A stretch of 64,000 bases of DNA, from NCBI GenBank assembly GCA_965140705.1, contig OZ223300.1, positions 64,001-128,000 on the forward strand, in the 5' to 3' direction. Source of the stretch: an uncultured Arcobacter sp. (GTDB lineage Bacteria > Campylobacterota > Campylobacteria > Campylobacterales > Arcobacteraceae). Below, piece after piece: positions 9,261-40,386 of the stretch. Each line of letters opens with the position of its first letter. Position 1 is the stretch's first letter. The notes below the pieces were generated by a model that was given only the letters and a program-made list of their open reading frames with translations, made no database searches and was not told where the DNA came from. A program made the position numbers and the translations under genes.

Positions 9261-9294
9261 AAGATTAATTAATCTTTACTAGTTATAATCCTAC

Positions 9295-10967: not shown

Positions 10968-10977
10968 GGATATCCCA

Positions 10978-21096: not shown

Positions 21097-22014
21097 ATGG
21101 ATTTTAATACTATTTTACAAGAGATTCAAGAAGAGATTCAAAAGTACTTTACAAAAGGGAAATTAGCAAATTACATTCCTATGTTAGCCCAAGCCAATGA
21201 GAGTGATTTTGCTATGAGTATAATAACCCTTGATAATGAAGAGTATCATATTGGGTGTAGTGATAAAAAGTTCTCTATTCAAAGTATCTCAAAAGTTTTT
21301 ACTTTTACCCTAGCCTTAGAGTACTATAGCAAAGAGTTATATAAAAGAGTTGGACATGAACCATCTGGAAATCCTTTTAATTCATTAGTTCAGTTGGAAT
21401 ACGAAAGTGGAACTCCACGAAATCCTTTTATAAATGCAGGTGCAATTGTCACAACTGATTGTTTGACCTCAATTTACAAAAATAATGCCTTTGATGAAAT
21501 TTTAGCTTTTATGAAAAAAGTTTCACACGAAGAAAATATCACTTATGATGAAGATATTTTTATCTCTGAATTAGGACATGGTTTTCATAACTTTGCACTT
21601 ATAAATCTAATGAAAAGTTATCAAAATATCAAAAATCCCATAGATGATGTGATTCAAACATATTTTAAACAATGTTCAATAATGATGAATACAAAACAAC
21701 TTGCCCACTCTATGTTATTTTTAGCAAACCATGGGAAAGATCCCTTTACAAAAGAGCAAATTATAAATGAATCAAAAGCAAAAAGAATAAACTCACTAAT
21801 GCTAACTTGTGGACACTATGATGCAAGTGGTGATTTTGCATACAGAGTTGGACTTCCTGGTAAAAGTGGTGTAGGAGGAGGAATAGTTGCAGTCGTTCCA
21901 AAGAAGATGGCAATATGCGTTTACTCACCAAAACTAAATGTACATGGAAACTCACTAATTGGCACAAAAGCTTTAGAACTTTTTACTACTAAAACGGGGC
22001 TTTCAATCTTTTAG
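21097..22014 (+). CDS. glsA: Glutaminase
   Basis: SIQSISK catalytic motif, EPSGNPFN, NPFINAGA, GKSGVGGG. Confidence 0.95.
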   Translation: MDFNTILQEIQEEIQKYFTKGKLANYIPMLAQANESDFAMSIITLDNEEYHIGCSDKKFSIQSISKVFTFTLALEYYSKELYKRVGHEPSGNPFNSLVQLEYESGTPRNPFINAGAIVTTDCLTSIYKNNAFDEILAFMKKVSHEENITYDEDIFISELGHGFHNFALINLMKSYQNIKNPIDDVIQTYFKQCSIMMNTKQLAHSMLFLANHGKDPFTKEQIINESKAKRINSLMLTCGHYDASGDFAYRVGLPGKSGVGGGIVAVVPKKMAICVYSPKLNVHGNSLIGTKALELFTTKTGLSIF

Positions 22015-23840
22015 AAAACTATTTTAAAACACAAGCCTTCGTTTTTATTTTCTGCTGTTATTTGACCATTTAACTTTTTAGAAACTATCTCTTTAGCTAA
22101 ATATAACCCAATACCAGTGGAAGAACTTTTTGAAAAATCTTTTTCGAAAATTTTTTCTTTATGTTTAATATTTATTCCTCCTGCATTATCTTCAAAACAT
22201 ACTTCAATTTTATTTTCAATCTCTTTTATAAATAGCTTTATCTTCGGTTGTTTTACTTTATTTCTTTCAAATGCTTTTAAAGAGTTCTCAAATAAAATCA
22301 TAAGTAAATTAAAAAAATAGTTTTTCTCTATTTCAATTTTTAAATTATCTTTACAATTAACTTCTATTAATATTGATTTTTTTATAAATTCCCTATTAAT
22401 TAGATTTATAATATAATCTATCTCCTTTTTTAAATCAATTTTTTCAATATTTTTCTCTTCTTTATAAAAGTTTAACTGACTAAGTGCAGTATCCCTTAAA
22501 TATAGAGTTATATCTTTTATATTCTTTAAATTTTTATCAATAATTTTATCAATATTTTTATCGTTGAATTCCCTTGCTACATCAATATGATTAATGCTAT
22601 TATATATATTATTTATAGGGCTTTTCCATTGGTGAGAAATATTAATCATAGTTTGTCCTATAAAAGTTAGTTTTGAATACTCATTTAAAAGTTGAGCATT
22701 TTTTTCATGTTCTTTTTTTATTAAATAAGTTGCATGAACAAGGGCAAAAGCTAAGAATAAATCTTGACCTATTGATCCAAAAGCTAAAGAATAATAATAA
22801 AATTCATTATTTGAAATTACACCTACTAAACCTAAAATAAAATAAGTAATAGCAAAAAAAAGTATCAAATTGGCTATAAGATAAAACCCTGAACCTTGTT
22901 TTTTCTCTTTATAAACTTTAAGTGATAAAAGCAAAAGCATTAACATTGTTAAAATATTTATTATATTTGTAATACTATTATCATAAAGCAAACTGTCTAT
23001 AATTGGATAAAATAAATTTATCATAGCAATAACAAAAACTATTCCAAGTAATGCTTTTAATATTTTCTTTATTACTTTATATTCATCTTTTTTAATGTTA
23101 AAAAAACTAAAAGGAAACATCCCTAAGAGAATCAATGCTATTAGGGGAACAACATAATTAGAAATAGTGACCAAATAAATAGGAAATTCAAATTCATAAA
23201 AAAATCCAGCAACTGCAAATTGATAAGTAGTACTACATATAGTAAAAAGAGAATAAGTTAAATAATGTTTTTTTCTAAAAACTAAAAAAAATCCAAAACT
23301 TGTTACTGTGACAACTATTAAAATACCAAATATAATAAAATATACCATTTCTTGTTTATTATAATAATTATTAAAAGCATCAATTTTAATAGCTTGCCAA
23401 TTTGTTTCCATAGAACCAAAACTTTTTTGTTTTATATAAATATCAAGTTTTTCAAAACCTTCTAACTCAAGATCAAAATATGAAACTCTAAAAATATTAT
23501 CTCTATTTTTATAATCTTTCATATCACCTAAAGAGTATTTTTCAATTAAGTTATCATCTTTAAGAATATAGACATCAACATAATCTAAACCAGCTCTTTT
23601 ATTATAAAATCTTTTTATCTGCTTTTTTTTTGAGTTATTAGTCACTAATATATGAATCCATAAATTATGTCGTACTATCCCAAAATTTGATTTAGTAATT
23701 GGGCTAAACTTTTCTTTTTTTTGTAAGATTTCTTTTAATGTCATATTATTATTGATATCAATTAAATATTTTTTTTCAATATTAAGTTGATTGGCAAAAA
23801 GAAAATTTAGCAAAAGGGTGAGTAAAAATATATGTTTCAT
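22011..23840 (-). CDS. 7TM-DISM sensor histidine kinase, paralog 1
   Basis: Signal peptide + DISMED2-like domain, 7 TMs, ISHQWKSP H-box, EDNAGG, TGIGLY. Confidence 0.88.
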   Translation of the reverse strand: MKHIFLLTLLLNFLFANQLNIEKKYLIDINNNMTLKEILQKKEKFSPITKSNFGIVRHNLWIHILVTNNSKKKQIKRFYNKRAGLDYVDVYILKDDNLIEKYSLGDMKDYKNRDNIFRVSYFDLELEGFEKLDIYIKQKSFGSMETNWQAIKIDAFNNYYNKQEMVYFIIFGILIVVTVTSFGFFLVFRKKHYLTYSLFTICSTTYQFAVAGFFYEFEFPIYLVTISNYVVPLIALILLGMFPFSFFNIKKDEYKVIKKILKALLGIVFVIAMINLFYPIIDSLLYDNSITNIINILTMLMLLLLSLKVYKEKKQGSGFYLIANLILFFAITYFILGLVGVISNNEFYYYSLAFGSIGQDLFLAFALVHATYLIKKEHEKNAQLLNEYSKLTFIGQTMINISHQWKSPINNIYNSINHIDVAREFNDKNIDKIIDKNLKNIKDITLYLRDTALSQLNFYKEEKNIEKIDLKKEIDYIINLINREFIKKSILIEVNCKDNLKIEIEKNYFFNLLMILFENSLKAFERNKVKQPKIKLFIKEIENKIEVCFEDNAGGINIKHKEKIFEKDFSKSSSTGIGLYLAKEIVSKKLNGQITAENKNEGLCFKIVF

Positions 23841-23841
23841 A

Positions 23842-24516
23842 TTATTTTTTTATTATATAACCAATATCTTTTATATTTTCTATAAGTTTTATAGGTAATT
23901 TTTTATTTATTTTATAAATTAAAGATATCAATGATTTTTGGTTTTGAGAATCTAAAATATTCAATATTTCATCATAATTGACAATTTGATTTTCTCTTTT
24001 AAAAAGATACTCTATAATTTTTATCTCATAAGAGGTAAATTTATATTCATTTCCATCATAAAAAACTATCTTTTTTGTTCTATCATAATAACAAATTTGA
24101 GAAATTTGATATTTTAATAAACTCTTTTTTTCAATATTTTTTACAAATTTATATAAAACATTTTTTAAAACATCTAACTCATAGGGTTTTACAATATAAT
24201 CTAATAAATTCAGAGAAATAGCATTTTTGAGTTTAATTTTGTCATCATATGAACTCATTATAAATGCAGATACTTCATCATCAGTCTCTCTTATTTTTGA
24301 TAGGAATTCATATCCATTCATAATAGGCATATCATAATCTACTATTAGTAAATGACATTCATTTTTATAATAAACCTCTAAAGCCTCTTTTCCATTATTT
24401 GCTATAAATACATTTTTGAAATAGTATTGCAATATTTTTTTTAGGCTTTCACAAGCTTTTATATCGTCATCAACATATAAAACATTTAATTCTTTTAAAA
24501 TACTTAAATCATTCAT
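23842..24516 (-). CDS. OmpR-type response regulator, paralog 1
   Basis: VDDD, VDYDMP, KP receiver motifs; C-terminal winged helix ending GY. Confidence 0.9.
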   Translation of the reverse strand: MNDLSILKELNVLYVDDDIKACESLKKILQYYFKNVFIANNGKEALEVYYKNECHLLIVDYDMPIMNGYEFLSKIRETDDEVSAFIMSSYDDKIKLKNAISLNLLDYIVKPYELDVLKNVLYKFVKNIEKKSLLKYQISQICYYDRTKKIVFYDGNEYKFTSYEIKIIEYLFKRENQIVNYDEILNILDSQNQKSLISLIYKINKKLPIKLIENIKDIGYIIKK

Positions 24517-24578
24517 TATAAAATTTTACCATGTTGAAACTAATTTTAATCCAATAAAAGAATTTTAAACTTTTTTAT

Positions 24579-24609
24579 TGATTTTGTGTTGATTTTACTA
24601 TGATAAAGT
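24579..24609 (+). promoter_or_regulatory. TGATTTT-N4-TGATTTT-N4-TGn(-10) promoter of tpsA
   Basis: tgatttt gtgt tgatttt acta tg a taaagt; same architecture at 32252-32282. Confidence 0.7.
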
Positions 24610-24637
24610 AGTAAAAATATTTTATCAAGGAAAATAG

Positions 24638-27600
24638 ATGAAAAGATTATTAGACTTTAGCTCAAGGTTTAGAATCCTAAAAGGGGGAAAGATAAGTATG
24701 GTAGTATCAGCCCTATTAGCTGGAGTTACTATCTCTTATGCTGCTCCTAGTGGCGGAGTAGTTACAAGTGGAACTGCAAATATTTCCCAAAATGGAAATA
24801 CCACAAATATAAACCAATCCACCCAAAAGGCAACTATCAATTGGCAAAAGTTTGGTATTAAAGCTAATGAAACAGTAAACTTCAAACAACCAAATAGCTC
24901 TTCTATTACACTAAATAGAGTAATAGGAAATGAAAGAAGTGTTATCAATGGAGCACTTAATGCCAATGGTCAAGTTTGGATTTTAAACTCAAATGGGGTT
25001 TTATTTGGTAAAAATGCTAGTATTAATACAGCTGGTCTTTTAGCAACTACAGCAAAACTCTCTGATAATGATTTTAATATAGGAAACTATAACTTTAAAA
25101 ACTCTTCTTCAAACTCTATTATAAACTTAGGAACAATAAATATCTCAAATGAAGCCTATGCAGTTTTAGCTGGAAAAGAAGTAACAAATGAAGGAAGTAT
25201 AAAAGCTGTAAAAGGAAAGATACATTTAGTAGGAGCAGATGAATACTCTATAAACCTAAATGGTAATTCTTTATTAAACCTAACAGTAAAAAAAGGAATC
25301 TTAGATTCTATTGTAAAAAATAGTGGTTCAATAAAAGCAGATGGTGGAGAAATATACCTTACAACAAATGCAGTAGATGAATTACTAAAAGGGGTAGTTA
25401 ATAATACAGGTGTTATTGAAGCTGATTCTTTAGATGGACTTACTGGTAAGGTTGAACTCTTTGCCCATGGTGGTGAAGCTCAAGTTGGCGGTACCATTTC
25501 TGCTACTGATGGGTTTGTGGAGACTTCTGGGAAAGATTTTACTTTCAATGGTGCAAATATAATTACAAGTAATTGGCTTATTGATCCTGTTAACATTACT
25601 ATTGATTCCTCACTTGCAAGTGCAATACAAAGTGCTTTAGATACAGCAGATGTAACGATAACTACTGATGGAAGCAATACTCCTGATACAAGTTCTGGTG
25701 AAAGTGCAGGAGATGGAGATATTAATATAAATTCTAATATCACAACAAATGCATTAACTTCTGATAAAACATTAACATTACTAGCAGATAATAATATTGT
25801 TTTTGCAGATGGTGTTTCTATTGATGCTAGTCAAAATTCAAATGCAAATAAATTAAATGTTGTTTTAACAGCTGACAAAGATAATAATGGCGATGGACAA
25901 ATTATATTAAATGGAGCAACAGGAAATACTATTATTACAAAGAATGGAGACCTAACTATCAATAATCAAGTTGACAGTAATGTTGATGGAGAAACACCTC
26001 TTACACTAGATGCAGGAACAGGTAAAATAACATTATATGATGATTTAGGGGAAAATAAAAAGTTGAAATCATTAAATATAAGTGCAGGTAATTTAGATTT
26101 AGGAACAAAATTACACTATATAAATACCTTAAATGAACAAGTTTATAATGCAACTATAAACTTACTTGCAACAGATCAATTTGCAAATGCAGGTTTTGAA
26201 GAAGGTGATACATCAGGTTGGACAGTTGATACAACACATACAATATATTTAAATGGTGGATCTACTATAGCGGGAGTTAAGACTCCAAATGATGATTCTT
26301 TACCAAACAAAGTTCCATCACAACCAAGTGCAAATAATAGTGGAGCATATGATGATTATACATCAACAGGAACATATACTTCACAAATCTCTACAGATAC
26401 AGATTCTGATGGAGGAAGTTACTCTTTACAGTTAACATATTCTGGAGGAAATGTAAGTGAAGGTTATGGTGTTGTTCATGGACCATCTGTTGCAAGTAAT
26501 GATTCTGTATCATTAGGTAAGGGGGATGAAGTATCATTTAAATGGAAAGCATCAGGTGGAAGCGATGCATATGATGTATTTGGATATATTTTAAATGTAG
26601 ACACAGGAGAAACGCAAGCAATACTAAATGAAACAGGTGCAAATGGAAGTGCTTCTACTAACTGGGCAACAGCATCTGTTACGGCAAATAAAGCAGGTAA
26701 CTATAAATTTATTTTTATCGGTGGCTCTTGGGATGCTAGTGGAGGAAGAGCTTTAGGAGCGAACCTTTATATTGATGGTATATCAACTAATAGTAAGAAA
26801 ACTTTTTCAGGCTCTGCTGTTACATTTAATAATCCTTTAACTGCACATACAAATTCCGTAGAAATTATTGCGGATAAAGTTGCTCTTAATGATAAAATAT
26901 CAGGAAGTAATACATTAACTATAAAACAAAAAACAAATGGAAATAATATCGAAATTGGAGGGACATCAACGGCTGATAATAATATATTAGATGTAACAAG
27001 TTCTGATTTAGCTAATATTCAAACAGGATTTTCAAAAGTTATTTTTGGTGATAATGAAACTGCAAAAATCACTACAAAAGGTCCTATAGTCGCTGATTAT
27101 GACTTGACTTTAATTGGAAAAACTGCAGGTGTTGAAATAACTAATGAATTAAATATTGGAACAAAAACATTAACAATTGAAAGTAACAGTGATGTTAATG
27201 ATTCAGGACAAGGACATATTATTGCAAAAAACCTAAATATAAAAGGAACTGGAGACTTTACTTTAGATAGTAACAATAACGATGTAGATGTACTTGCAGC
27301 AGGTACATCAAGTTCACCAATTGGAAAACTAGTCTATAGAGATGCCGATGATATTACAATAGGAAAAGTTAATGACTCAAAAGGACTAAACTCAACAGAT
27401 AATATTAAAGTAAGTACAGTAAAAGATGCCATTAAAGTCCTTGAAAATGTAACTACTTCTAAACAAGGTAGTGATGTTATTAATTTAAATGGAGAAGAAA
27501 ATGTATCAAAAGGACGTTCATATGATGCTCCTGAAAAAGCCACAACACCAGAAACAGTAAAAGATAATAGACCAGATGAAATTAAAAAAGTAATTACAAC

Positions 27601-27958
27601 AATCGCAAATAATACAACAACAAATGTTGTATTACCAAAAGTAATCAATACTCCAAAAGTAAAAGTGTCACAAAATCAAATACCTCAAACAAATGCAAAC
27701 CTAGGAATTAATAAGGGAAATGTATCTATTGTCTCAAAAACAATTAATGGAGAAAGTGCAAATAAAGTAGTAACTTTAAGTGAAATAAAAACTGCAATGA
27801 ATAAAAATACTACACAAAATACAGATGTATCAAATACTCAAGATGATATAAGAGTACCTTTATCATCTGATTCAGTAATAGATTTAGTAAATGGTGGAGT
27901 AAACCTACCAGAAGGTGTAGATCAATTATTTTATGTAGTAAAAGACAATGAGAGATAA
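24638..27958 (+). CDS. TpsA / filamentous haemagglutinin-family exoprotein
   Basis: Extended signal peptide, INWQKF, NSNGVLFG TPS domain, WLIDP, N/T/G-rich beta-helix; adjacent to tpsB. Confidence 0.92.
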   Translation: MKRLLDFSSRFRILKGGKISMVVSALLAGVTISYAAPSGGVVTSGTANISQNGNTTNINQSTQKATINWQKFGIKANETVNFKQPNSSSITLNRVIGNERSVINGALNANGQVWILNSNGVLFGKNASINTAGLLATTAKLSDNDFNIGNYNFKNSSSNSIINLGTINISNEAYAVLAGKEVTNEGSIKAVKGKIHLVGADEYSINLNGNSLLNLTVKKGILDSIVKNSGSIKADGGEIYLTTNAVDELLKGVVNNTGVIEADSLDGLTGKVELFAHGGEAQVGGTISATDGFVETSGKDFTFNGANIITSNWLIDPVNITIDSSLASAIQSALDTADVTITTDGSNTPDTSSGESAGDGDININSNITTNALTSDKTLTLLADNNIVFADGVSIDASQNSNANKLNVVLTADKDNNGDGQIILNGATGNTIITKNGDLTINNQVDSNVDGETPLTLDAGTGKITLYDDLGENKKLKSLNISAGNLDLGTKLHYINTLNEQVYNATINLLATDQFANAGFEEGDTSGWTVDTTHTIYLNGGSTIAGVKTPNDDSLPNKVPSQPSANNSGAYDDYTSTGTYTSQISTDTDSDGGSYSLQLTYSGGNVSEGYGVVHGPSVASNDSVSLGKGDEVSFKWKASGGSDAYDVFGYILNVDTGETQAILNETGANGSASTNWATASVTANKAGNYKFIFIGGSWDASGGRALGANLYIDGISTNSKKTFSGSAVTFNNPLTAHTNSVEIIADKVALNDKISGSNTLTIKQKTNGNNIEIGGTSTADNNILDVTSSDLANIQTGFSKVIFGDNETAKITTKGPIVADYDLTLIGKTAGVEITNELNIGTKTLTIESNSDVNDSGQGHIIAKNLNIKGTGDFTLDSNNNDVDVLAAGTSSSPIGKLVYRDADDITIGKVNDSKGLNSTDNIKVSTVKDAIKVLENVTTSKQGSDVINLNGEENVSKGRSYDAPEKATTPETVKDNRPDEIKKVITTIANNTTTNVVLPKVINTPKVKVSQNQIPQTNANLGINKGNVSIVSKTINGESANKVVTLSEIKTAMNKNTTQNTDVSNTQDDIRVPLSSDSVIDLVNGGVNLPEGVDQLFYVVKDNER

Positions 27959-27966
27959 GGAATAAA

Positions 27967-29652
27967 ATGAGAAGAATAACTAAACCAATAATATTATCAC
28001 TAATAACATCAAGTTCATTATTAGCAGCAACACCAAATATAGGTGATGCAATAAAACAAATAAAAGTTCCAAAAGAAGTAAAACAAAAAAAGACTCCTTT
28101 AGTAGAAATTGGTGGAGTTAAAAAATATGCTCCTGTTATGAAAGATGATAAAAGTGGTAAAACTATATTTGTAAAGGGTTTTAAAATAGAAGGTGCTATT
28201 CATATAAATGAAACTACCCTACAAAATCTAATCTCTTCATATACAAAAAAAGATTTAACCTTTAAACAACTACAAGAAGTAACAAGCATAATCACAAAAT
28301 ATTATAGAAGTAAAAATTACTTTGTAGCACGTGCATATTTACCTGTACAAGATATAAATAAAAATAATGGAGTAATTACTATTACTATTATTGAAGGTAA
28401 TTATGGAAAGTTTAATTTAAAAAACAACTCTTTAGTTAAAGATAGTATTGTTCAGGGTATGTTAGATGATGCCAAAAGGGATAATATAGTTTCTACTAAT
28501 ACTTTAGAGCGAGCAATGTTAATCATTAATGACACACCAGGTGTAAAAGTAACTAGTGCTGATGTTATGCCAGGAGCTGATGTAGGAACTTCTGATTTTT
28601 CTATTACAACAGAAGAGACAAAAAGATTTGATGGGTATATTTTAGCTGATAATTATGGAAGTAGATATACAGGTAAAAATAGAGTTATGGCTGGGGTTAA
28701 TATTAACTCTCCTTTTAAAATAGGAGATAAAATCTCATTAAGTGGTCTATTAAGTAATAAGACTGATTTAAAAAATGGTAGATTAGCATATTCAGCTCCT
28801 TTAATGTCAAATGGATTAAGAGGAGAACTAAGTTATTCTAAAACAACTTATGCCTTAGGAGATAAATATTCAAATCTTGATGCAAAGGGTAACTCTACAG
28901 CTTTAGATGCTAAATTAACTTATCCAATTATACGAACAAGAATGGAGAATTTAAAAGCTTCATTAGATATTGATAAAAAGAGTTTAAAAGATGAAATTAA
29001 TTCTCAAGATGATACAACAAAAAAAGATGTTAAATCTTTAAGCTTAGGATTAGACTATGATAAGAGTTATTTAGCCTTTAATCTTCCATCAACTTCTAAA
29101 GTTAGTTTTAATTATACCTATGGAAAGTTAAGCTTTGATGATGCTGCTAAAAGAGCAGATGATGAAAATGGAGCTAATACAAATGGTAATTATTCTAAAG
29201 TTAATTTGGATTTATCACATAGTATAAACTTTACTTCTAAAATCTCATTAGATACTTCATTAAACTTACAGTATGCCCTAGCACATAAAAACCTAGATGG
29301 AAGTGAAGATTTATCTATTGGTGGAGCTTATGGGGTTAAGTTATATCCTACTAGTGAAGTTAGTGCTGAAAATGGGTATATATTTAATATAGAAGGAAAA
29401 TATAGATTGCCTGATATAAACTCTTTATCAAATAGTGTTGGAATCTTTTATGATAGAGGAAGAGCATTTATGGCAAATAACAATGTAGGCTTTGAAGCTA
29501 AATCTTTACAAGATGTTGGTGTTGGATATTATGCTTCATATAAAGACTTCTTTGGTCAAGTTCAAGTTGCTTGGAATGCTAATAGTGCTCCTGTTACTAG
29601 TGAACCTAATAGAAACAGTAGAGTTCTTTTTCAAGGTGGGTGGGTCTTTTAA
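27967..29652 (+). CDS. TpsB (ShlB/FhaC/HecB) outer-membrane translocator
   Basis: POTRA region (YYRSKNYFVARAYLPVQ), DNYGSRYTG, IGGAYGVKLY loop, terminal Phe. Confidence 0.92.
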   Translation: MRRITKPIILSLITSSSLLAATPNIGDAIKQIKVPKEVKQKKTPLVEIGGVKKYAPVMKDDKSGKTIFVKGFKIEGAIHINETTLQNLISSYTKKDLTFKQLQEVTSIITKYYRSKNYFVARAYLPVQDINKNNGVITITIIEGNYGKFNLKNNSLVKDSIVQGMLDDAKRDNIVSTNTLERAMLIINDTPGVKVTSADVMPGADVGTSDFSITTEETKRFDGYILADNYGSRYTGKNRVMAGVNINSPFKIGDKISLSGLLSNKTDLKNGRLAYSAPLMSNGLRGELSYSKTTYALGDKYSNLDAKGNSTALDAKLTYPIIRTRMENLKASLDIDKKSLKDEINSQDDTTKKDVKSLSLGLDYDKSYLAFNLPSTSKVSFNYTYGKLSFDDAAKRADDENGANTNGNYSKVNLDLSHSINFTSKISLDTSLNLQYALAHKNLDGSEDLSIGGAYGVKLYPTSEVSAENGYIFNIEGKYRLPDINSLSNSVGIFYDRGRAFMANNNVGFEAKSLQDVGVGYYASYKDFFGQVQVAWNANSAPVTSEPNRNSRVLFQGGWVF

Positions 29653-29678
29653 ACCCCTTCCTTTGCTTAGAAGAGGTT

Positions 29679-31508
29679 TTAAATAACTATTTTAAAAGAT
29701 AAGCCCTCATTTTTATTTTCTGCTGTTATTTGACCATTTAGCTTTTGAGAAACTATCTCTTTTGCTAAATATAAACCTATTCCCGTAGAAGAGCTCTCAG
29801 AAAAATCTTTTTCAAATATCTTTTCTATAAAATCTATACTTACTCCACCTGCATTATCTTCAAAAATAATTTCAAGTTTTTTCTCTATTTCTTTTACTAA
29901 AATTCTTATTTTAGGATTTTTTATCTTTCGTCGTTCAAAAGCTTTTAGGGAGTTTTCAAATAAAATCATTAACACATTTAAAAAATAGTTTTTTTCTATT
30001 TTTATTTTTATCTTATCATTACAATCAAAACTTATCTTAATATCTTTTTTTATAAACTCCTTTTCCATAAGTCTTATTACATACCTTATCTCTTCACAAA
30101 ACTCAACTTCTTCAATATTTTTTTCTTCTTTATAAAAATGCAGCTGCCCAAGGGCTGTCTCTTTTAGATAAGAAGTTGTCTCTTTTATAATTTCAAGATT
30201 ATTATCAATAATTGTATCTATATTTTTATCTTTAAATTCACGGGCAGCTTCTATATAAGTGATACTGCTATAAATATTATTTATAGGTTCTTTCCACTGG
30301 TGGGAAATATTTACCATGGTTTGTCCTATAAAACTAAGTTTTGAATATTCACCTAAAAGTTCAATGTTTTTCTCATTTCTTTCTCTCATTACATATACAG
30401 AATAAATTAACCCAATGGCTAAAACCATATCTTGCCCAATGGCTCCTATTGAAATGAAGTAATATAAAAAACCTTCATATTTTAAAATACCAAAAGCGAC
30501 CAATATATACAAGCCTGCAAAAAAGAAATAAACAATATTTGCCAATAAATAAAAAATAGAACCATCTTTTTTTAAAAGAAACATTCGAATTGAAAATATC
30601 AAAATAGTAAGCATAAGTATAAAGATAATATAAACATAAAATTTACTAAAATAAAGCACATCAGGATAAATGCGATAAAAGAACTGTGTAAAAGCAAAAA
30701 TAGTAAGTAAAACAATAGATATTTTTATAATAGTTTGTGTAATTTTAAATTCATTTTTTTGGATATTGAAAAAATATAAGGGAAACAAACCAAATAAAAT
30801 CATTGCAAAAGCAGGAATAAAAAAGATAAAAAATTTATTTAAATCAAGTGGAATACCCAATTGATATAAAAATCCAGCTACAGAAAGTTGAAAAATCCCA
30901 ACAGATAAGGTAAATAAAGAATAAATTAAAAAATGCTTCTTTTTAAAAATAGAATAAAGAGTAAAACCAAGAACAATCATCACAAGTAAAATACCGGCAA
31001 AAAATGCGTATATCAATCCTTGAAAGAAATAATAAGTTTCAAAATCTTTGATATTAATTATATTCCACCTTATTTCCATAGTGCCATAAGTTTTTTGTTT
31101 TATAAATATCTCTACTTTTTGCAAAGGTTGAAGTTCAATATCAAAGTAAGAAATCCTAAAATCATTCTCTCTTTTATTATGTTCTCTTAGATTTCCTAGT
31201 TTGTAAGTTTTTGTTATTTGATTATCTTTTACTAAAAAAACATCAATTAAATTTATTCCTGCCATTTTATTATTTATTCTTTTTTTTAAATTGTGTTTTG
31301 TGTTATTTTTTAAATCGATTTTTATCCAGACAGAACTTTTTGTTATCCCTAAATTGTATTTTTTTATAGGAATAAAATCATCTTTGTGCTTCATTATCTC
31401 TTGTATATTTAAAGAGTTATTCGTATCTACAAAATACTTTTCTACAACATCTAAATCATGGGCAAAAAGTGAGGTAATAAAAATAAAAAATAAAATAAAT
31501 AACTTCAT
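29679..31508 (-). CDS. 7TM-DISM sensor histidine kinase, paralog 2
   Basis: Same length (609 aa) and motifs as 22011-23840; ISHQWKEP. Confidence 0.88.
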   Translation of the reverse strand: MKLFILFFIFITSLFAHDLDVVEKYFVDTNNSLNIQEIMKHKDDFIPIKKYNLGITKSSVWIKIDLKNNTKHNLKKRINNKMAGINLIDVFLVKDNQITKTYKLGNLREHNKRENDFRISYFDIELQPLQKVEIFIKQKTYGTMEIRWNIINIKDFETYYFFQGLIYAFFAGILLVMIVLGFTLYSIFKKKHFLIYSLFTLSVGIFQLSVAGFLYQLGIPLDLNKFFIFFIPAFAMILFGLFPLYFFNIQKNEFKITQTIIKISIVLLTIFAFTQFFYRIYPDVLYFSKFYVYIIFILMLTILIFSIRMFLLKKDGSIFYLLANIVYFFFAGLYILVAFGILKYEGFLYYFISIGAIGQDMVLAIGLIYSVYVMRERNEKNIELLGEYSKLSFIGQTMVNISHQWKEPINNIYSSITYIEAAREFKDKNIDTIIDNNLEIIKETTSYLKETALGQLHFYKEEKNIEEVEFCEEIRYVIRLMEKEFIKKDIKISFDCNDKIKIKIEKNYFLNVLMILFENSLKAFERRKIKNPKIRILVKEIEKKLEIIFEDNAGGVSIDFIEKIFEKDFSESSSTGIGLYLAKEIVSQKLNGQITAENKNEGLSFKIVI

Positions 31509-31509
31509 A

Positions 31510-32184
31510 CTATCTTTTCAACCAATATCCCATATCTTTTACATTTTCTATAAGTTTGATATTTAGTTTTTTGTTTATATTATAAACTGAATTTATCAAA
31601 GATTTTTGATTACTTGATTCTAAAATATATAAAAGCTCATCATATTTAATAACTTGATTTTTATATCTAAAAAGATATTCGATAAGTTTTATTTCATAAG
31701 AGGTAAATTTATACTCTTTTGAGTCATCAATGAAAGTCTTTTTTAATCTATCGTAAAAAAGAGTCTCAGTAACATAGTATCTTATTAATTCCTTTTTTTC
31801 TAAACTTTTCACAAATTTATTTAGAACATCTTTTAACTCATCCAAGCCATAAGGTTTGACAATATATTCCAAAAGATTTAAGCCAATTGCATTTTTGAGT
31901 TTAACTTTATCATCATAAGAACTTATAATCATAGCAGATATCTCATCATCTTTTTCTCTTATTATTTGCAAAAATTCATAACCATTCATAATAGGCATAT
32001 CATAATCTACTATTAAAAGATGACACTCTTTTGTATTATATATCTCTAATGCTTCTTCTCCATTATGAGCTATAAATACATTCTTAAAATAATATTCCAA
32101 AGTCTTTTTGATATTTTCACAAGCTTGAATATTATCATCTACATGTAATACATTTAATTCTTTTAATATATCTAAATTATTCAT
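31510..32184 (-). CDS. OmpR-type response regulator, paralog 2
   Basis: 224 aa like paralog 1; shared ECHLLIVDYDMPIMNGYEFL and YKFTSYEIK. Confidence 0.9.
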   Translation of the reverse strand: MNNLDILKELNVLHVDDNIQACENIKKTLEYYFKNVFIAHNGEEALEIYNTKECHLLIVDYDMPIMNGYEFLQIIREKDDEISAMIISSYDDKVKLKNAIGLNLLEYIVKPYGLDELKDVLNKFVKSLEKKELIRYYVTETLFYDRLKKTFIDDSKEYKFTSYEIKLIEYLFRYKNQVIKYDELLYILESSNQKSLINSVYNINKKLNIKLIENVKDMGYWLKR

Positions 32185-32251
32185 GGAAAAGATTATATCA
32201 TTAATAAAAATAAAAATAGATTCTAAAATTTACAAGTCTTTTACTTTCTAA

Positions 32252-32282
32252 TGATTTTGCAATGATTTTGAGTTGCTAATAT
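32252..32282 (+). promoter_or_regulatory. TGATTTT-N4-TGATTTT-N4-TGn(-10) promoter of the Slam-like operon
   Basis: tgatttt gcaa tgatttt gagt tg c taatat. Confidence 0.7.
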
Positions 32283-32323
32283 TTAGCTATTAAAAATTAT
32301 TTAACAAAAAAGAAGTTTACTAA

Positions 32324-33640
32324 ATGACAAAAAGAATATTATTTTTAACACTTTTTATAACATCACTACTGTTTTCAAAAGAAACTCTAACCTCATATGA
32401 CCAAGCAGTAAAACTATTTAATGAAAAAGATTATGAAAAAGCTTACGAAATATTTCTTTCTTTATCAAAAAATGATTTGGAAAACCAAAATCTAAACTTC
32501 TATCTTGGAAGATGTGAATATGAACAAGGAAAATATGATATAGCAATAAGTTATTATGAGAGAATACTTTTTGCTCAACGAAATAATTTAAGAGCTCAAA
32601 TAGAAATAGCCCAAAGTAATTTGATGCTTAAAAACTATACTCAAGCAATAAAAGACTTTAATGCTGTTTTAGTAAATGCAGATACTCCAGCTGATGTAAA
32701 AAAAAGCATTGAAGAAAGACTTGCATACATAAAACAAACTATGCAAAAAAACTTTATAAGTGGTGCTTTAGTATTTGATTTAAGTTATGATTCAAATGTA
32801 AATAACTCAGCAACAGCAGGTAAATACTCAGTCTTTGTACCCCAATTGGGAACTGATTTAACTTTAAATAATGATGGAAAAGAAGAATCAGATTACTATT
32901 ATGATGCCATTGCTGTTATAAATCATGTATATAAATATAATGAAAACTTCTCTTTAAATAATAGCCTTGTAGCTTATACCCAAGATTATGATACTAAAAA
33001 AGATAGTAATATTGATGTTATCTCATTTACTTCTACTCCTACTTTTTATGAAGGGGCAAATAAATATGGCACTGGATTTGGAATTGATTATGTTAGATAC
33101 AATGATAAAGACTATTTAAAAAACTATAATCTAATATTTTCAAACTCTCATATTTTTGCACAAACAACTTTAAATGATATTACTTTTAAACTAAGTAAAA
33201 AACTCTATGACCAAGAAGAAGATAAACAAAAAAGTGCCTATGTATTTGATTTAACAAATAGCTTAAAATATAAAACAGAAGACTTTGGACTTTTTACTTT
33301 AGATACTTCATATAGTAAAGAAATAGAAATATATGAACAAAGAACAGATGTAAGTAAAGAATCATTTGAAGTAGGCTTAGAAAATAGTTTAGCTTTACCA
33401 TATAAATTTAATCTAAACACAAATATAAATAGTAAAAAAGTAATCTATAGGGATACAGATGTTAACTTTCTATCTAGAAGAGTTGATAAGATAAATAGTG
33501 TCTCACTTGGAATAAGTAGACCATTAAGAAAAAACTTAATCTTTGCCTTAAAAGGAACAGCTACAAACAATATGTCAAATCAAGCACCCTTTGATTATAG
33601 AAAACAAGTTATTAAATCTTCATTGATTTATACATTTTAA
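32324..33640 (+). CDS. TPR + outer-membrane beta-barrel protein (Slam/DUF560, T11SS-like)
   Basis: Signal peptide, TPR helices, YDSNVN barrel start, amphipathic strands, terminal YTF. Confidence 0.72.
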   Translation: MTKRILFLTLFITSLLFSKETLTSYDQAVKLFNEKDYEKAYEIFLSLSKNDLENQNLNFYLGRCEYEQGKYDIAISYYERILFAQRNNLRAQIEIAQSNLMLKNYTQAIKDFNAVLVNADTPADVKKSIEERLAYIKQTMQKNFISGALVFDLSYDSNVNNSATAGKYSVFVPQLGTDLTLNNDGKEESDYYYDAIAVINHVYKYNENFSLNNSLVAYTQDYDTKKDSNIDVISFTSTPTFYEGANKYGTGFGIDYVRYNDKDYLKNYNLIFSNSHIFAQTTLNDITFKLSKKLYDQEEDKQKSAYVFDLTNSLKYKTEDFGLFTLDTSYSKEIEIYEQRTDVSKESFEVGLENSLALPYKFNLNTNINSKKVIYRDTDVNFLSRRVDKINSVSLGISRPLRKNLIFALKGTATNNMSNQAPFDYRKQVIKSSLIYTF

Positions 33641-35202
33641 GGATTTAACATGAAAAAGATACTTTTATTACTTTTTATACTTATTAGTTTTTCATTTGCT
33701 AGTATTGGACAAATAACAGCTTTAGTTGGTGATGTTAAGATATCTAGGGATTCTAATACTATCCTAGCTAAACTTGGAGAAAAATTAGAAAAGAATGATG
33801 TTATAAATTCTTCAAAAGGTTCTAAAGCTCAAATTACCATGAATGATAATACTATTATTACCATTGGGCAAAATTCTACGTTAAATATCTTTGATTATGT
33901 TTATGATGAGAGTAAACCAAAAGATTCTAAGGCTAGCTTTGGGTTTATGAAAGGCTCTTTTAAATCTATTACTGGAGCAATAGGTAAAATCAATAAAAAA
34001 AGATTTAAACTTAGAACTAAAAGTGCAACTATTGGTATTAGAGGAACTACTATTATTGGAAATCAACAAATTATTATTTGTACTGATGGTGCTATTAGTG
34101 TTACTGCAAATAATTTTACTGTTAATGTTGATAAGCAAGAGTTTACAAGACTTCCACAAGGTAAAGCTCCAACTCCTCCTGAACCTTTAAAACAAGATAC
34201 CTTAGATAGTGTTCAAAAAGGATTAAATGCTGAATCTAGTGATAGTAATACTACAGAGTCTAAAGAAACTAAAGAGAGCACTACTTCTACTAAAAAAGAA
34301 GAAAAAGCAAGTTCTAAGGATGATGAAGGTGGAACTCTTACACCTAGTGGTAATGATGACGGAACTACTCCTAAAAAAAAGGTTACACCTCCTAAAGAAA
34401 ATATTACTACACCTCCTACAGTTTTAGAAGATACACCTCCTGTTAATCCTGAGAAGCCTGATATCCCTTTATCTGGCTTTTCAACACTTGGGTATGTAAT
34501 TGCAGCAAAGTTTGATGGAAATTCTTATTCTCTTCAAACTGGAGAAATAGAGAAAAATGAAAATAACTCTCTGATAATTATAAATAACCAAAATATTACT
34601 GATGCTACCTTTGGTGAACCAAATAAAGGGGACGTCGTAGAATTTGGAGAGTGGTCTTCAAAACAAAATCCTTATGATCAAACATTTTATATTGCAGGTA
34701 TTAAAACTGATACAAGTTATATAAGCAGTTTAATAAATAATACTTCAAAAACTACAAAATCATTTGATAACGCAGGTAATTTAATAACTGGATATATAGT
34801 TGATAATAATACTTTATACAACATTGATATTTTCTTTTCATCTTTTAACTTTTCATTTAATTTTGGTGCAGGGATAAACTCTTTTACAGGGGATATGAAC
34901 ATAAAATATTTTAATAGTAATGATAATACTGATAAGGGGGAATATGCCATAAAGTTTGCTAATGGCAAAATAAACAGTTCAGATTTTTCATCATCAGAAT
35001 TAACTCATGGAAATACCCCTATAAATGGAAGCTTACATGGTTCTTTTTATGGAAGTGGAGCAAACAAAATTGAAGGAAACGTTAACTTTAATGATGAAGT
35101 AAATAATATACAAGGGGCTGTGATATTTGGAGCTGAAGCTAACTAAAAGGAGCTAAAGGTATAAAAAAATACCATCGCCACTTTATCATAAACTGGGAAA
35201 GT
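33562..35202 (+). repeat. Tandem duplication unit 1 (1641 bp)
   Basis: Starts with the last ~79 nt of the Slam-like gene plus RBS; recurs at offset +1641. Confidence 0.9.
33650..35146 (+). CDS. FecR-domain protein with linker and TbpB-like C-terminal barrel, copy 1
   Basis: ITIGQNS, TKSATIGIRGT (FecR); T/E/K/P linker; C-terminal GSFYGSGANKIEG...IFGAE. Confidence 0.75.
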   Translation: MKKILLLLFILISFSFASIGQITALVGDVKISRDSNTILAKLGEKLEKNDVINSSKGSKAQITMNDNTIITIGQNSTLNIFDYVYDESKPKDSKASFGFMKGSFKSITGAIGKINKKRFKLRTKSATIGIRGTTIIGNQQIIICTDGAISVTANNFTVNVDKQEFTRLPQGKAPTPPEPLKQDTLDSVQKGLNAESSDSNTTESKETKESTTSTKKEEKASSKDDEGGTLTPSGNDDGTTPKKKVTPPKENITTPPTVLEDTPPVNPEKPDIPLSGFSTLGYVIAAKFDGNSYSLQTGEIEKNENNSLIIINNQNITDATFGEPNKGDVVEFGEWSSKQNPYDQTFYIAGIKTDTSYISSLINNTSKTTKSFDNAGNLITGYIVDNNTLYNIDIFFSSFNFSFNFGAGINSFTGDMNIKYFNSNDNTDKGEYAIKFANGKINSSDFSSSELTHGNTPINGSLHGSFYGSGANKIEGNVNFNDEVNNIQGAVIFGAEAN

Positions 35203-36872
35203 TACAAACAATATTTCAAATCAAGCACCCTTTGATTATAGAAAACAAGTTATTAAATCTTCATTGATTTATACATTTTAAGGATTTAACATGAAAAAGA
35301 TACTTTTATTACTTTTTATACTTATTAGTTTTTCATTTGCTAGTATTGGACAAATAACAGCTTTAGTTGGTGATGTTAAGATATCTAGGGATTCTAATAC
35401 TATCCTAGCTAAACTTGGAGAAAAATTAGAAAAGAATGATGTTATAAATTCTTCAAAAGGTTCTAAAGCTCAAATTACCATGAATGATAATACTATTATT
35501 ACCATTGGGCAAAATTCTACGTTAAATATCTTTGATTATGTTTATGATGAGAGTAAACCAAAAGATTCTAAGGCTAGTTTTGGCTTTATGAAAGGCTCTT
35601 TTAAATCTATTACTGGAGCAATAGGTAAAATCAATAAAGAGAGATTTAAACTTAGAACTAAAAGTGCAACTATTGGTATTAGAGGAACTACTATTATTGG
35701 AAATCAACAAATTATTATTTGTACTGATGGTGCTATTAGTGTTACTGCTAATAATTTTACTGTTAATGTTGACAAGCAAGAGTTTACAAGACTTCCACAA
35801 GGTAAAGCTCCAACTCCTCCTGAGCCTTTAAAACAAGACACCTTAGATAATGTTCAAAAAGGATTAAATGCTGAGTCTAGTGATAGTAATACTACAGAAT
35901 CAACAGAAACTAAAGAGAACACTACTTCTACTGAAGAAGAAAAAGCAGGAGCTAAGGATGATAAAGATGGAACTCTTAAACCTAGTGATAAAAATGATGG
36001 AACTACTCCTAAAGAAAATGTTACTACTCCTTCAGAAAATATTACACCTCCTAAAATTTTAGAAGATACACCTCTTCTTAATCCTGATAAACCTGAGATT
36101 AATCCTGATATCCCTACAGAGCATACTAGTTTTTCTGGTTTTTCAACACTCGGATATGTTTCTTTTCTAGCACGCTCTAATGGAACTTTTAGTTCTGCTC
36201 AAACTGCAGAAATAGGGTTTAAGGAAAATAATAGCGTTAATAACTACCTGGTGATTGCAAATAACAAAAATATTACTTTTCCGATTCTCTTTTATACAGG
36301 AGATTTTTACTCTGACTCAGAAGAAGAGAATTTTTTAGGCTTGGGAGAATGGCAACATAATGAGGCTATTCCTCAGTATGATAAAGGATATTGGGTTAAA
36401 GGTCTTAAAACTGATACAAGTTATATAAGCAGTTTAATGAATAATGCTTCAAAGACTACCAAATCATTTACTGGTAGTGGTGGCAAGATTAAAGGAACAA
36501 TATTGGAGAATAATAATTCATACGACATTGCTAGTAATTCATTTATGAACTTTAAATTTGATTTTGGTGCAGGGATAAACTCTTTTACAGGGAGTATGAA
36601 ATTATACTATGGCAATAATCAAGACTATACCATAGGGTTTGCTGATGGCAAAATAAATAGTTCAGGTTATTCATCAAAATTAACTCATGGAGGGGAATCT
36701 ATAAATGGAAGCTTACATGGTTCTTTTTTTGGAAGTGGAATAAAAGGATTTGGAGGAAATGTTAACTTTGATGATGGAGAGATACAAGGGACTGCAGTAT
36801 TTATAGGTGAATTTCAATAAAAGAAGCTAAAGCTCAAAGACCATCGCCACTTCATCACAAACTGGGGAAGCT
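35203..36872 (+). repeat. Tandem duplication unit 2
   Basis: Near-identical to unit 1 up to ~35895, then diverged; conserved 3' element. Confidence 0.88.
35291..36820 (+). CDS. FecR-domain protein with TbpB-like C-terminal barrel, copy 2
   Basis: First ~200 aa almost identical to copy 1; C-terminal half diverged. Confidence 0.75.
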   Translation: MKKILLLLFILISFSFASIGQITALVGDVKISRDSNTILAKLGEKLEKNDVINSSKGSKAQITMNDNTIITIGQNSTLNIFDYVYDESKPKDSKASFGFMKGSFKSITGAIGKINKERFKLRTKSATIGIRGTTIIGNQQIIICTDGAISVTANNFTVNVDKQEFTRLPQGKAPTPPEPLKQDTLDNVQKGLNAESSDSNTTESTETKENTTSTEEEKAGAKDDKDGTLKPSDKNDGTTPKENVTTPSENITPPKILEDTPLLNPDKPEINPDIPTEHTSFSGFSTLGYVSFLARSNGTFSSAQTAEIGFKENNSVNNYLVIANNKNITFPILFYTGDFYSDSEEENFLGLGEWQHNEAIPQYDKGYWVKGLKTDTSYISSLMNNASKTTKSFTGSGGKIKGTILENNNSYDIASNSFMNFKFDFGAGINSFTGSMKLYYGNNQDYTIGFADGKINSSGYSSKLTHGGESINGSLHGSFFGSGIKGFGGNVNFDDGEIQGTAVFIGEFQ

Positions 36873-37032: not shown

Positions 37033-38115
37033 GTGTTAAGTATGTCTCTAAAAGCTTTAAAAGCCAATCCTCTAAAAACAACTTTAATATATATAAGTCT
37101 AATATTTTCAATAACATCTATTTTTCTTATTAGCTCTATTTCAAATGGAGTTATCTCTATGTACTCAAATATGCTAAAAAGTGATGGAGATATTATTATC
37201 ACTCAAGCAAAAATCTCTGATACATTTTTTTCAAATGTAAATATAAAACTAATAAAAGAAATCGAAAAATTAAAAGGTGTACAAAAAACTTCAGCGATAA
37301 TTGTAGGAGCTAGTCCAGTTGAAGAGTTACCAATCGTTGCTGTTTATGGAGTCACTCAAAATAGATTTGATAATTACAAATTAACACAAGGTTCTTATCC
37401 AAAACCAAATGAAGTACTTGTGGGAAAATCTATTTATAACTCACTTTCAAATAAAAAAACTGTACAAATAGCCGATAAAAAGTTCCAAGTATCAGGGGTC
37501 TATAAAAGTAAGATTGGCTTTGAAAATGGAGGAGTTGTTTTAAATATATCTGATGCAAGTGCCATTTTTAATAAAAGTGCTTCAATGCTAATGGTAAATA
37601 GTAAAATTAATACAAATATCAAAGACCTTATCTCAAAAATACAAGCACTAAGTTCTGATATAGAAGTAAAATCAACTCAAAACTTTGTAGATAATTATAA
37701 TCAATTTAAAATCATAAAAACCTCATCAAATCTTATAGGTCTTATCTCATTTTGTATGGGATTACTTGGAATCATTAGTATCATGAGTATAACTATAAAT
37801 CAAAGAAAAACAGAGTTTGGTATCAAAAGAGCCATAGGAATTTCAACTAAAAAAATAATCTTGCAAATCATGAGTGAAAGTACTATTTTAGGAGTTTTTA
37901 GTTTTATAAGTGCCTTTTTTATCTCTTGGATTGCCTTATATTTTATAAGAACCTCATCACTATTTCATGGGTATGTAAATGGTGAGATTTCATCTACATT
38001 GGCTGTTTATTTATTTGGCTGTTCTCTTTCAATGGCAATTTTAGGTTCAATCATTCCAGCATTAAATGCTTCAAAAATCGACCCAATCATTTTAATGCAA
38101 GGAGATAAAATATGA
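37033..38115 (+). CDS. MacB/FtsX-family ABC permease
   Basis: N-terminal TM, periplasmic domain, QRKTEFGIKRAIG, PALNASKIDPI. Confidence 0.9.
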   Translation: MLSMSLKALKANPLKTTLIYISLIFSITSIFLISSISNGVISMYSNMLKSDGDIIITQAKISDTFFSNVNIKLIKEIEKLKGVQKTSAIIVGASPVEELPIVAVYGVTQNRFDNYKLTQGSYPKPNEVLVGKSIYNSLSNKKTVQIADKKFQVSGVYKSKIGFENGGVVLNISDASAIFNKSASMLMVNSKINTNIKDLISKIQALSSDIEVKSTQNFVDNYNQFKIIKTSSNLIGLISFCMGLLGIISIMSITINQRKTEFGIKRAIGISTKKIILQIMSESTILGVFSFISAFFISWIALYFIRTSSLFHGYVNGEISSTLAVYLFGCSLSMAILGSIIPALNASKIDPIILMQGDKI

Positions 38116-40293: not shown

Positions 40294-40350
40294 AATTTGT
40301 TTCTTTAGTTGGAATTTATTTCCAACGATAAAAGAAAACCATAATATTAA

Positions 40351-40373
40351 GGTCCCTTTTAAATGGGACATTT
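40351..40373. repeat. REP-like palindromic element, copy 2
   Basis: ggtcccttttaaatgggacattt directly upstream of an AAAGGAG RBS. Confidence 0.55.
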
Positions 40374-40386
40374 AAAAGGAGAACCT

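Follow-up and report, generated by a model that had tools for sequence, protein, structure and literature searches.

Why would a bacterium keep the same membrane sensor cassette twice, back to back, with each copy turned towards a different system for exporting surface proteins? The question is raised by positions 22011..36872 of a 64,000-nucleotide (nt) stretch of DNA, called the window here, from the 3.1-Mb genome (G000) of an uncultured Arcobacter species. In unit 1, the genes for a 7TMR-DISM histidine kinase and a response regulator (HK1 and RR1) stand on the minus strand, divergent from the tpsA and tpsB genes of a two-partner secretion (TPS) system. In unit 2, a second such pair (HK2 and RR2) stands divergent from the gene for a Slam-like outer-membrane protein of the type 11 secretion system (T11SS) kind and from two tandem cargo genes, A and B. 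A reading made earlier from the DNA letters alone (the sequence-only reading) had pointed out this repeated layout, and the open reading frame (ORF) map gives the same coordinates for it (Table 1). Families in the window were assigned by Pfam profiles against their cut-offs, with NCBIfam scanned as well, and Pfam agrees with the gene assignments.

We put at roughly 70% the probability that each 7TMR-DISM/OmpR-type module senses an extracytoplasmic cue and activates the export operon it faces through a DNA box in the intervening spacer. The periplasmic DISMED2 domain would read the cue and the kinase would phosphorylate its own regulator; the regulator, as a head-to-tail dimer, would then bind two 11-bp direct repeats that replace the –35 element directly upstream of an extended –10, and transcription of the adjacent export operon would switch on. 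Unit 1 would drive the TpsA exoprotein and the TpsB pore, and unit 2 the Slam-like protein together with its two tandem cargo proteins, in which export and ligand binding would fall to a variable TbpB-like handle-barrel tail behind a FecR head that hardly varies. The proposal is built on gene content, paralogy, folds, motif conservation and synteny, from which we infer that the regulators bind the box, that they activate and do not repress, that a cue exists and that the barrel protein exports the cargo; that the two modules switch the facing operons is suggested by the DNA motifs described below.

Two paralogous kinase–regulator modules

Sequence comparison shows the two modules to be true paralogues: in a gap-free alignment over 608 amino acids (aa) the kinases HK1 and HK2 are 51% identical, and RR1 and RR2 share 70%. 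The nearest other kinases in the genome reach at most 35% identity, in matches limited to the kinase core. Conserved kinase cores with diverged sensor domains had been expected, and the domain-wise identities between HK1 and HK2 bear this out, at 41% for the sensor, 37% for the seven-transmembrane (7TM) region, 65% for DHp and 74% for the catalytic domain. HK1 and HK2 score 64.7 and 70.2 bits for DISMED2, 92.4 and 73.3 bits for the 7TM domain and 45.4 bits each for HATPase_c. A HisKA domain was not called by Pfam in either kinase; by eye, an invariant His403 lies within SHQWK in DHp. The regulators score 75 (RR1) and 74 bits (RR2) for Response_reg, and in NCBIfam they align best with regulators of the OmpR family, at scores well short of every cut-off.

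The two kinases have fared differently in related genomes. HK2 is 88-98% and RR2 93-100% conserved in orthologues. HK1 shares only 52-54% with its positional counterpart in close relatives (L047/L048, L013, L014, L016), where flanking proteins are 94-100% identical, and no kinase more than about 53% identical to it was found among 184 genomes of the family. Judged by these identities, HK1 is a hypervariable allele.

The starts of the two regulator genes have a further feature in common. Extended –10-like elements, TGGTAAAAT at 24523-24531(-) and TGATATAAT at 32192-32200(-), end 6-7 nt 5′ of the ATG of RR1 and RR2, and by eye neither ATG has a Shine-Dalgarno sequence upstream. Because of this short distance and the missing Shine-Dalgarno, the sequence suggests that the RR1 and RR2 transcripts are leaderless.

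A regulator box in the divergent promoters

The direct repeat TGATTTT-N4-TGATTTT is present in both divergent spacers, on the plus strand and thus oriented towards the export gene. Exact copies occur three times in the whole genome, two of them in the window, against one copy of the reversed pattern, which served as control. With up to one mismatch, the window holds four copies where 0.84 are expected, and none of 100 shuffles reached four. By eye, each of the two window boxes is followed, after 4 nt, by an extended –10 of the form TGnTAnnnT in the direction of the export gene.

The box is kept in relatives. It is present in all 12 regulator/export spacers inspected (two in the window, two each in L013, L014 and L048, and one each in L012, L015, L016 and L049), and in the seven 20-kb loci of the relatives all 10 matches fall inside these spacers and none elsewhere. 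The unit-1 box is retained in the unit-1 spacers of L013, L014, L016 and L048, and the unit-2 box in the unit-2 spacers of L012, L013, L014, L015, L048 and L049. The flanks and spacers of the repeats are unit-specific and strictly conserved, reading TTGATTTTGTGT in 5/5 unit-1 spacers and AATGATTTTGCAA in 7/7 unit-2 spacers. In more distant modules, 12 of 13 spacers have this same repeat with 11-bp spacing or a clade variant of it (GTGATTTT, GTGGTTTT, TGACTTT), counting three (L055, L062, L068) in which the repeat is imperfect and was judged by eye; the one spacer without it belongs to the third 7TMR-DISM kinase of the genome, which is paired with a regulator of a different type. A second copy of the box, inverted and close to the regulator gene, is present in many of the distant spacers and absent from the window units.

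The 11-bp direct repeat would fit the binding mode of the OmpR/PhoB family. The pho box of PhoB consists of two 11-bp direct repeats, each with seven conserved and four variable bases, that take the place of the –35 element next to a –10. The repeat geometry here is the same, whereas the sequence is another one, the box abuts an extended –10, and binding is predicted only.

The third exact copy in the genome (C1:729436, at about 1501-1518 of L003, G000:C1:727936-730953) has a fumarate-hydratase-like gene on one side and, downstream of it, a 96-aa ORF that looks secreted, with an unrelated OmpR-type regulator and kinase beyond. We treat this copy as a chance match or another regulator's site.

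Recurrence of the cassette in the family

Kinases of this type (E<=1e-60) occur in 25 of 184 family genomes, at 31 places, a descriptive count from related genomes: 13 lie by TPS genes, seven by T11SS-like (Slam-like/FecR) genes and four by genes for giant LamG/cadherin/NHL proteins; five have none of these and two are at contig ends. The sequence-only reading had looked to relatives for the association of kinase and export genes, and this part stands, with an export or adhesin neighbour at 24 of 31 places. The twin layout itself is not a conserved unit. It recurs in Arcobacter iocasae (L013), Arcobacter sp. Pygsuia-1 (L014) and G047; one genome (L016) has only unit 1, at the same site of the chromosome, and three (L012, L015, L049) have only unit 2. 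Because the units occur separately in relatives, their pairing is incidental and not obligate, and a unit that stands alone keeps its own kinase–regulator pair with its export operon.

The earlier proposal that one sensor cassette had been reused is upheld by a tree of 30 kinase rows (midpoint root only), in which the T11SS-linked kinases form one clade (100/100) inside the TPS- and adhesin-linked ones. Because of this nesting, the kinases point to one cassette type, and the tree agrees with one redeployment of a cassette that would originally have served adhesin genes.

The genome holds more than a twin, which is all that the first reading had seen: a third 7TMR-DISM kinase heads its other tpsA cluster. 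All three tpsA genes thus lie in clusters headed by a 7TMR-DISM kinase, and three of the genome's six 7TMR-DISM_7TM proteins are encoded next to export loci. The third kinase has a HisKA_2 core and a divergent OmpR-type regulator, and its cluster, with the other two tpsA genes, is on the same strand.

That cluster (L077/L078, G000:C1:1966000-1999900) comprises a tpsA, an autotransporter, a 275-aa ORF, an APS kinase, a DUF4915-TPR protein, a second tpsA and a tpsB. DUF4915-TPR and APS kinase genes also lie by tpsA in L055 (G172), and the gene content of both clusters hints at modification of the exoprotein, possibly sulfation. In the spacer that separates the third kinase gene from its divergent regulator gene (L078, 6830-6919), CGTTATAT occurs as a direct repeat, twice and 12 bp apart, and may be the site of the third kinase's regulator. 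Elsewhere in the family, in L059, L060 and L061 (G100, G093, G178), the ORFs opposite the kinase–regulator pairs are open-ended, exceed 1700-2600 aa and encode Laminin_G_3 and cadherin domains; the boxes number two or three in the 371- and 241-nt spacers of L059 and L060, and one in the 77-nt spacer of L061.

The region is mosaic between near-identical genomes. Against G047, the flanks of the locus have 90-99% DNA identity. The 3′ end of HK1 brings an abrupt fall to 64-79%, with a recovery through RR1; identity is lost altogether in the tpsA passenger (25750-27750), is back at 95-100% across unit 2 and drops again in the cargo tail. The tpsA passenger is swapped in G047 and also in the contigs of runs X3 and X8, where a contig bridges it with unlike sequence. 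For HK1, coverage in runs X3, X8 and X13 is slight or nil and no contig bridges the gene, so that the contigs are drawn on here for the bridged exchange of the tpsA passenger alone.

The export systems facing the sensors

In unit 1, the domains agree with the TPS pair proposed from the letters: TpsA has a TPS domain of 116.1 bits (cut-off 33.5) and an adhes_NPXG match of 78.3 bits in NCBIfam, TpsB scores 51.4 bits for POTRA_2 and 99.8 bits for ShlB, and the two genes are 8 nt apart. On these profile matches tpsA and tpsB are a two-partner secretion pair, and the TpsA exoprotein is probably an adhesin. The passenger past residue ~290, searched in three pieces at E<=1, matches no Pfam family. 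In the ESM Atlas it gave sub-threshold leads of 0.79-0.83, one of them to a cluster with CBM_4_9 in 21% of its members; a carbohydrate-binding insert would be a guess.

The unit-2 export genes had been read as a Slam/T11SS type, which is corroborated by transitive homology of the barrel protein to PF04575 proteins and by the TbpB fold of the cargo. The barrel protein has no direct match to SlipAM (PF04575), either as a whole at E<=0.01 or over residues 140-438 at E<=10; in Pfam it has TPR matches only, with TPR_Slam (PF24575) at 21.3 bits, under the cut-off of 35.2. A genome-wide PF04575 search returned no matches, its controls included, and is uninformative. When the barrel part was searched by phmmer against 1.84 billion representatives, 212 matches at E<=1e-3 were obtained. 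Domain scans of 108 sequences (the window protein and 107 of the 150 listed phmmer matches) found SlipAM in 45 and TPR_Slam in 58, and four of 15 top matches checked passed SlipAM at E<=1e-7. One match, P0038 (E 3e-44, 37% identity to the window barrel), carries SlipAM at 37.9 bits (cut-off 22). Because some of its phmmer relatives, P0038 included, carry SlipAM, the barrel protein is, by transitive homology, a divergent Slam/T11SS relative missed by the family profile. An ESM Atlas query with part of the protein matched SlipAM clusters at 0.97, which is a lead only.

The AlphaFold2 (AF2) model of this protein, with a predicted local distance difference test score (pLDDT) of 85.8, has helices at 24-139 followed by 14 long strands and two short ones at 166-183. 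Foldseek searches with the barrel model ranked BcsC and FadL first by E-value, and the best TM-scores (0.54-0.66) went to CymA and OmpG, both 14-stranded, with no Slam structure among the matches listed; a PDB sequence search returned TPR designs and chaperones only.

The cargo proteins A and B match FecR (PF04773) at 42.5 and 42.4 bits (cut-off 24), and have a weak likeness to LapA-type retention modules in NCBIfam (28 bits against a cut-off of 50). By eye, the N-terminus of cargo A is hydrophobic and ends in SFA before SIGQ; because no cysteine lies in or after the signal peptide, the cargo is of the soluble, non-lipidated type. A linker of ~80 residues (196-275), rich in Pro, Thr, Glu and Lys, separates head from tail. 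The AF2 model of the head (residues 5-277) has a pLDDT below 50 and no fold was read from it. The tail (residues 279-498, pLDDT 75-92) is modelled as a handle and an eight-stranded barrel, for which nearly all matches are established type 11 cargo: the top Foldseek match is the TbpB C-lobe 5kkx (E 2e-7), followed by TbpB, HpuA, NHBA, hemophilin, fHbp, LbpB and HphA. VIA-align 2 gives Z 13.9 for NHBA-C (114 residues aligned, root-mean-square deviation 2.3), 13.7 for the TbpB C-lobe (182 aligned over 278-498, deviation 3.7) and 13.0 for fHbp. In the model, the C-terminus of the cargo is therefore of the T11SS-cargo fold (TbpBBD type). The TbpB_B_D profile (PF01298) gives 16.4 bits (E 0.014) for cargo A, under the cut-off of 26, and no match for cargo B; a homologue of like architecture from another family (L111:3075-4622) has TbpB_B_D at 50.4 bits (profile 1-126) and also FecR. 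PDB sequence searches of the cargo, with a single sequence and with profile A3, found nothing relevant.

Cargo A and B are 70% identical overall, with only five differences over residues 17-196. The sequence between them (35162-35278) is 78% identical to the 3′ end of the Slam-like gene, with two stops, and a direct repeat, D1 (33554-33853 and 35195-35494), is 99% identical; read together, these mark cargo B as the product of a recent 1641-bp tandem duplication. Averaged over all pairs, the FecR heads are 94% identical, the barrels 70% and the handles 57%. Because third-codon identity in the heads is 80-91%, the frozen head reflects purifying selection and not conversion; gene conversion is ruled out by the 9-20% of third-codon differences, with the recent A/B duplicate excepted.

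A second locus of this kind lies elsewhere in the genome (L076, G000:C1:1856000-1875900), where a Slam-like gene at 8644-9960, 93% identical, is followed at 9970-11475 by a FecR-TbpB-like cargo, the third of the genome, with a head ~97% identical and a diverged tail. This pair comes after genes for a methyl-accepting chemotaxis protein, a PAS protein and a TolC-like protein.

Table 1. Features of the twin locus, in window positions
Feature	Position	Strand	Description
HK1, 7TMR-DISM histidine kinase	22011-23840	-	609 aa; signal peptide, DISMED2 sensor, 7TM, DHp, HATPase_c; Pfam
RR1, response regulator	23842-24516	-	224 aa; receiver and divergent OmpR/PhoB-type winged helix; Pfam
Unit-1 regulator box, TGATTTT-N4-TGATTTT	24579-24596	+	Two direct repeats 11 bp apart
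Putative extended –10 for tpsA, TGnTAAAGT	24601-24609	+	Predicted; 4 nt 3′ of box
tpsA, two-partner-secretion exoprotein	24638-27958	+	1106 aa; Pfam TPS, NCBIfam adhes_NPXG
tpsB, Omp85-type transporter	27967-29652	+	561 aa; Pfam POTRA_2, ShlB
HK2, 7TMR-DISM histidine kinase	29679-31508	-	609 aa; Pfam
RR2, response regulator	31510-32184	-	224 aa; Pfam
Unit-2 regulator box, TGATTTT-N4-TGATTTT	32252-32269	+	Motif search
Putative extended –10 for Slam-like operon, TGnTAATAT	32274-32282	+	Predicted; 4 nt 3′ of box
Slam/T11SS-like outer-membrane protein	32324-33640	+	438 aa; periplasmic TPR 24-139, ~14-strand barrel 143-437; AF2, phmmer
Cargo A	33650-35146	+	498 aa; signal peptide without lipobox, FecR 18-195, linker 196-275, TbpB-like tail 276-498
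Tandem-duplication scar	35162-35278	+	Degenerate repeat of the final 37 codons of the Slam-like gene
Cargo B, paralogue of cargo A	35291-36820	+	509 aa; FecR; diverged C-terminal half

On the 3′ side of unit 2 (37033-41364) follow genes for a MacB-like FtsX permease, an ABC ATPase, a 523-aa membrane-type protein with weak COX1 likeness and a 333-aa protein without family. These keep their position in relatives with unit 2 (L013, L014, L048) or without it (L016).

Weighing the readings

Several observations count against the proposal that each module switches on its facing operon through the box. The DNA-binding domains of the regulators fall below the Trans_reg_C cut-off of 26.2 bits (24.4 for RR1, 22.9 for RR2). 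A generic sigma-70 scan of the AT-rich window is uninformative and, because it returned fewer sites than expected (86 against 99.7), lends the proposed promoters no independent support; terminator-like sites, at four against 3.9 expected, are likewise uninformative. The second Slam-like/FecR locus, in L076, has neither a box nor an adjacent two-component system. Among the 31 kinase places, five are without an adhesin-like neighbour, and the surveyed genomes are kin, their counts not independent. Single spacers in L059 and L060 contain both flavours of the box, TT- and AA-prefixed. Elsewhere in the phylum, the Slam-like/FecR pair shares an operon with CHASE2 cyclases, which cannot directly act on a promoter. 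The last two points each bear on another reading of the locus.

Because both box flavours co-occur in the spacers of L059 and L060, where a single regulator faces the two, RR1 and RR2 may not be insulated from each other: either regulator would bind both boxes, or the kinases would cross-phosphorylate, and the two export systems would form a joint surface-protein regulon. The TGATTTT half-site core and its geometry are identical in both promoters, and the close likeness of the regulators (70%) and of the DHp domains (65%) would favour such crosstalk. However, the flanks of the boxes are strictly unit-specific, the putative recognition helices of RR1 and RR2 differ by eye at four positions, and each unit is found alone in some genomes. 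We regard joint control as rather unlikely.

A second alternative concerns unit 2 and arises from the wider distribution of its export genes. Relatives of the barrel protein are present in 35 of 401 sampled Campylobacterota genomes and 17 of 64 genera. At 25 of 28 inspected loci, a neighbour matches the window FecR head or the TbpB-like tail by BLAST, with the same C-terminal pattern. The next gene encodes a CHASE2 protein at 16 of the 28 (six called by Pfam, two of these with a cyclase domain in view, and 10 by near-identical protein tails), usually in the order FecR protein, barrel, CHASE2. A 7TMR-DISM kinase is the neighbour at two (G234 and G428, of another family), 23% identical to HK2 and accompanied by an OmpR-type regulator, and at 10 loci there is no sensor within 1.5 kb. 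Because the pair is tied to CHASE2 cyclases elsewhere, the unit-2 sensor may be a working partner of the export genes and not only their switch, and the distribution hints at a link that is more than transcriptional.

Unit 2 could then be a trans-envelope signalling device instead of a regulated secretion system, although the two are not exclusive: the barrel would bring the cargo tail to the surface, the periplasmic FecR head would report to the DISMED2 domain of HK2, and RR2 would feed back on the operon. Apart from the recurrence of the pair across the phylum beside interchangeable extracytoplasmic sensors, this would accommodate a head so much better conserved than the handle, under purifying selection, and a cargo that has no lipobox and spans head and tail with a long linker. 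In excerpts of the literature, S. meliloti CHASE2 cyclases sense a protein signal via the outer-membrane barrel NsrA (PMC13001267) and LysM-FecR proteins share operons with CHASE2 kinases (PMC5192318). Against it, known T11SS cargo is released or lipid-anchored, the S. meliloti FecR-domain protein SMc02177 is, in the excerpted text of PMC5498481, a target of the cAMP pathway and dispensable for perception, and the RR2 box argues that the link is at least partly transcriptional. We consider the signalling device unlikely.

A broader form of this idea, in which Slam-like barrels and FecR/TbpB-tailed proteins are the outer arm of an undescribed surface-sensing relay, appears to us distinctly improbable. 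In it, the tail would be displayed on the surface and joined, by the Pro/Thr-rich linker running through the outer membrane, to the periplasmic FecR head; the head would contact the extracytoplasmic domain of whichever inner-membrane sensor the lineage has, a 7TMR-DISM kinase here and CHASE2 cyclases elsewhere. If true, unit 2 would be a case of self-amplifying cell-surface signalling, with FecA-FecR-FecI logic assembled from parts of type 11 secretion.

A last reading has the kinase–regulator pairs acting on genes elsewhere and simply carried along in a variable island of surface-protein genes. It would suit a region that is mosaic between near-identical genomes and units that move independently, but it is very hard to credit with the pairing kept in at least 10 genera at 29-53% kinase identity and with conserved boxes oriented toward the export genes.

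Relation to known systems

In Bordetella, BvgA, a regulator of the NarL/FixJ type, controls the fhaB promoter, and its partner BvgS has periplasmic Venus-flytrap domains. The bvgAS two-component system lies divergent from the tpsA-type gene fhaB (PMC2225982, in part), and in this the bvgAS-fhaB/fhaC system resembles unit 1; unlike it, the modules here have a 7TMR-DISM sensor and an OmpR/PhoB-type regulator, are duplicated and also serve a non-TPS exporter. Another likeness is to Pseudomonas aeruginosa RetS and LadS, which, in the excerpts available, combine DISMED2 and 7TM sensor domains with control of surface and biofilm traits. Both of these, however, are hybrid kinases working via GacS/Rsm, whereas here a cognate DNA-binding regulator is encoded next to the target genes.

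With Slam/T11SS (Slam1/2 with TbpB, LbpB, fHbp and HpuA; HrpB-HrpC; hemophilin secretors), unit 2 shares a TPR-barrel outer-membrane protein beside a cargo with handle and eight-stranded barrel. It differs in that the barrel misses Pfam SlipAM directly, the host belongs to the Campylobacterota, the cargo is FecR-headed with a conserved head and variable tail, and a dedicated two-component system stands alongside. Soluble, non-lipidated T11SS cargo is known from the excerpted text of PMC12282271, and the FecR head is absent from the roughly ten cargo architectures in section 15 of that paper. The main texts of PMC12282271 and PMC8406197 do not mention FecR; in the supplement of this T11SS literature (PMC12282271/PMC8406197), PF04773 co-occurs 201 times, at a false discovery rate of 0.24. 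The FecR and CHASE2 modules, such as the Burkholderia 'BiofilmReg' operon and S. meliloti NsrA-CyaD1/D2/K with SMc02177, likewise tie a secreted FecR protein, sometimes with an outer-membrane barrel, to an inner-membrane sensor, as far as their excerpted descriptions go; here, by contrast, the sensor is a 7TMR-DISM kinase, the cargo tail TbpB-like and the barrel Slam-like.

The sequence-only reading knew of no description of the arrangement. A literature search outside most subscription journals likewise found neither 7TMR-DISM with two-partner secretion nor Slam with a two-component system, and on 7TMR-DISM with an adhesin nothing that seemed relevant from titles and the openings of abstracts; as bvgAS-fhaB attests, a two-component system divergent from tpsA does have precedent. 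Such divergent systems, two-component control of adhesins and soluble T11SS cargo are thus already known. What we have not found in print is a 7TMR-DISM/OmpR cassette with a definable box that serves TPS, Slam-like and giant-adhesin genes, nor a FecR-headed class of T11SS cargo in Campylobacterota and the coupling of the Slam-like/FecR pair to sensors.

Significance

Most 7TMR-DISM sensors are without known outputs, and the locus offers a testable one, made up of a regulator, a DNA box and a facing export operon. The cassette recurs with three kinds of surface-protein export in one bacterial family, where natural variants lend themselves to comparison: genomes with either unit by itself or with both, loci with a single or a doubled cargo gene, and an exchanged allele of HK1. 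Type 11 secretion gains a phylum outside the Proteobacteria surveyed in print, a FecR-headed cargo and a genetic tie to membrane sensors, and by that tie some Slam-type systems may serve signalling rather than nutrient capture.

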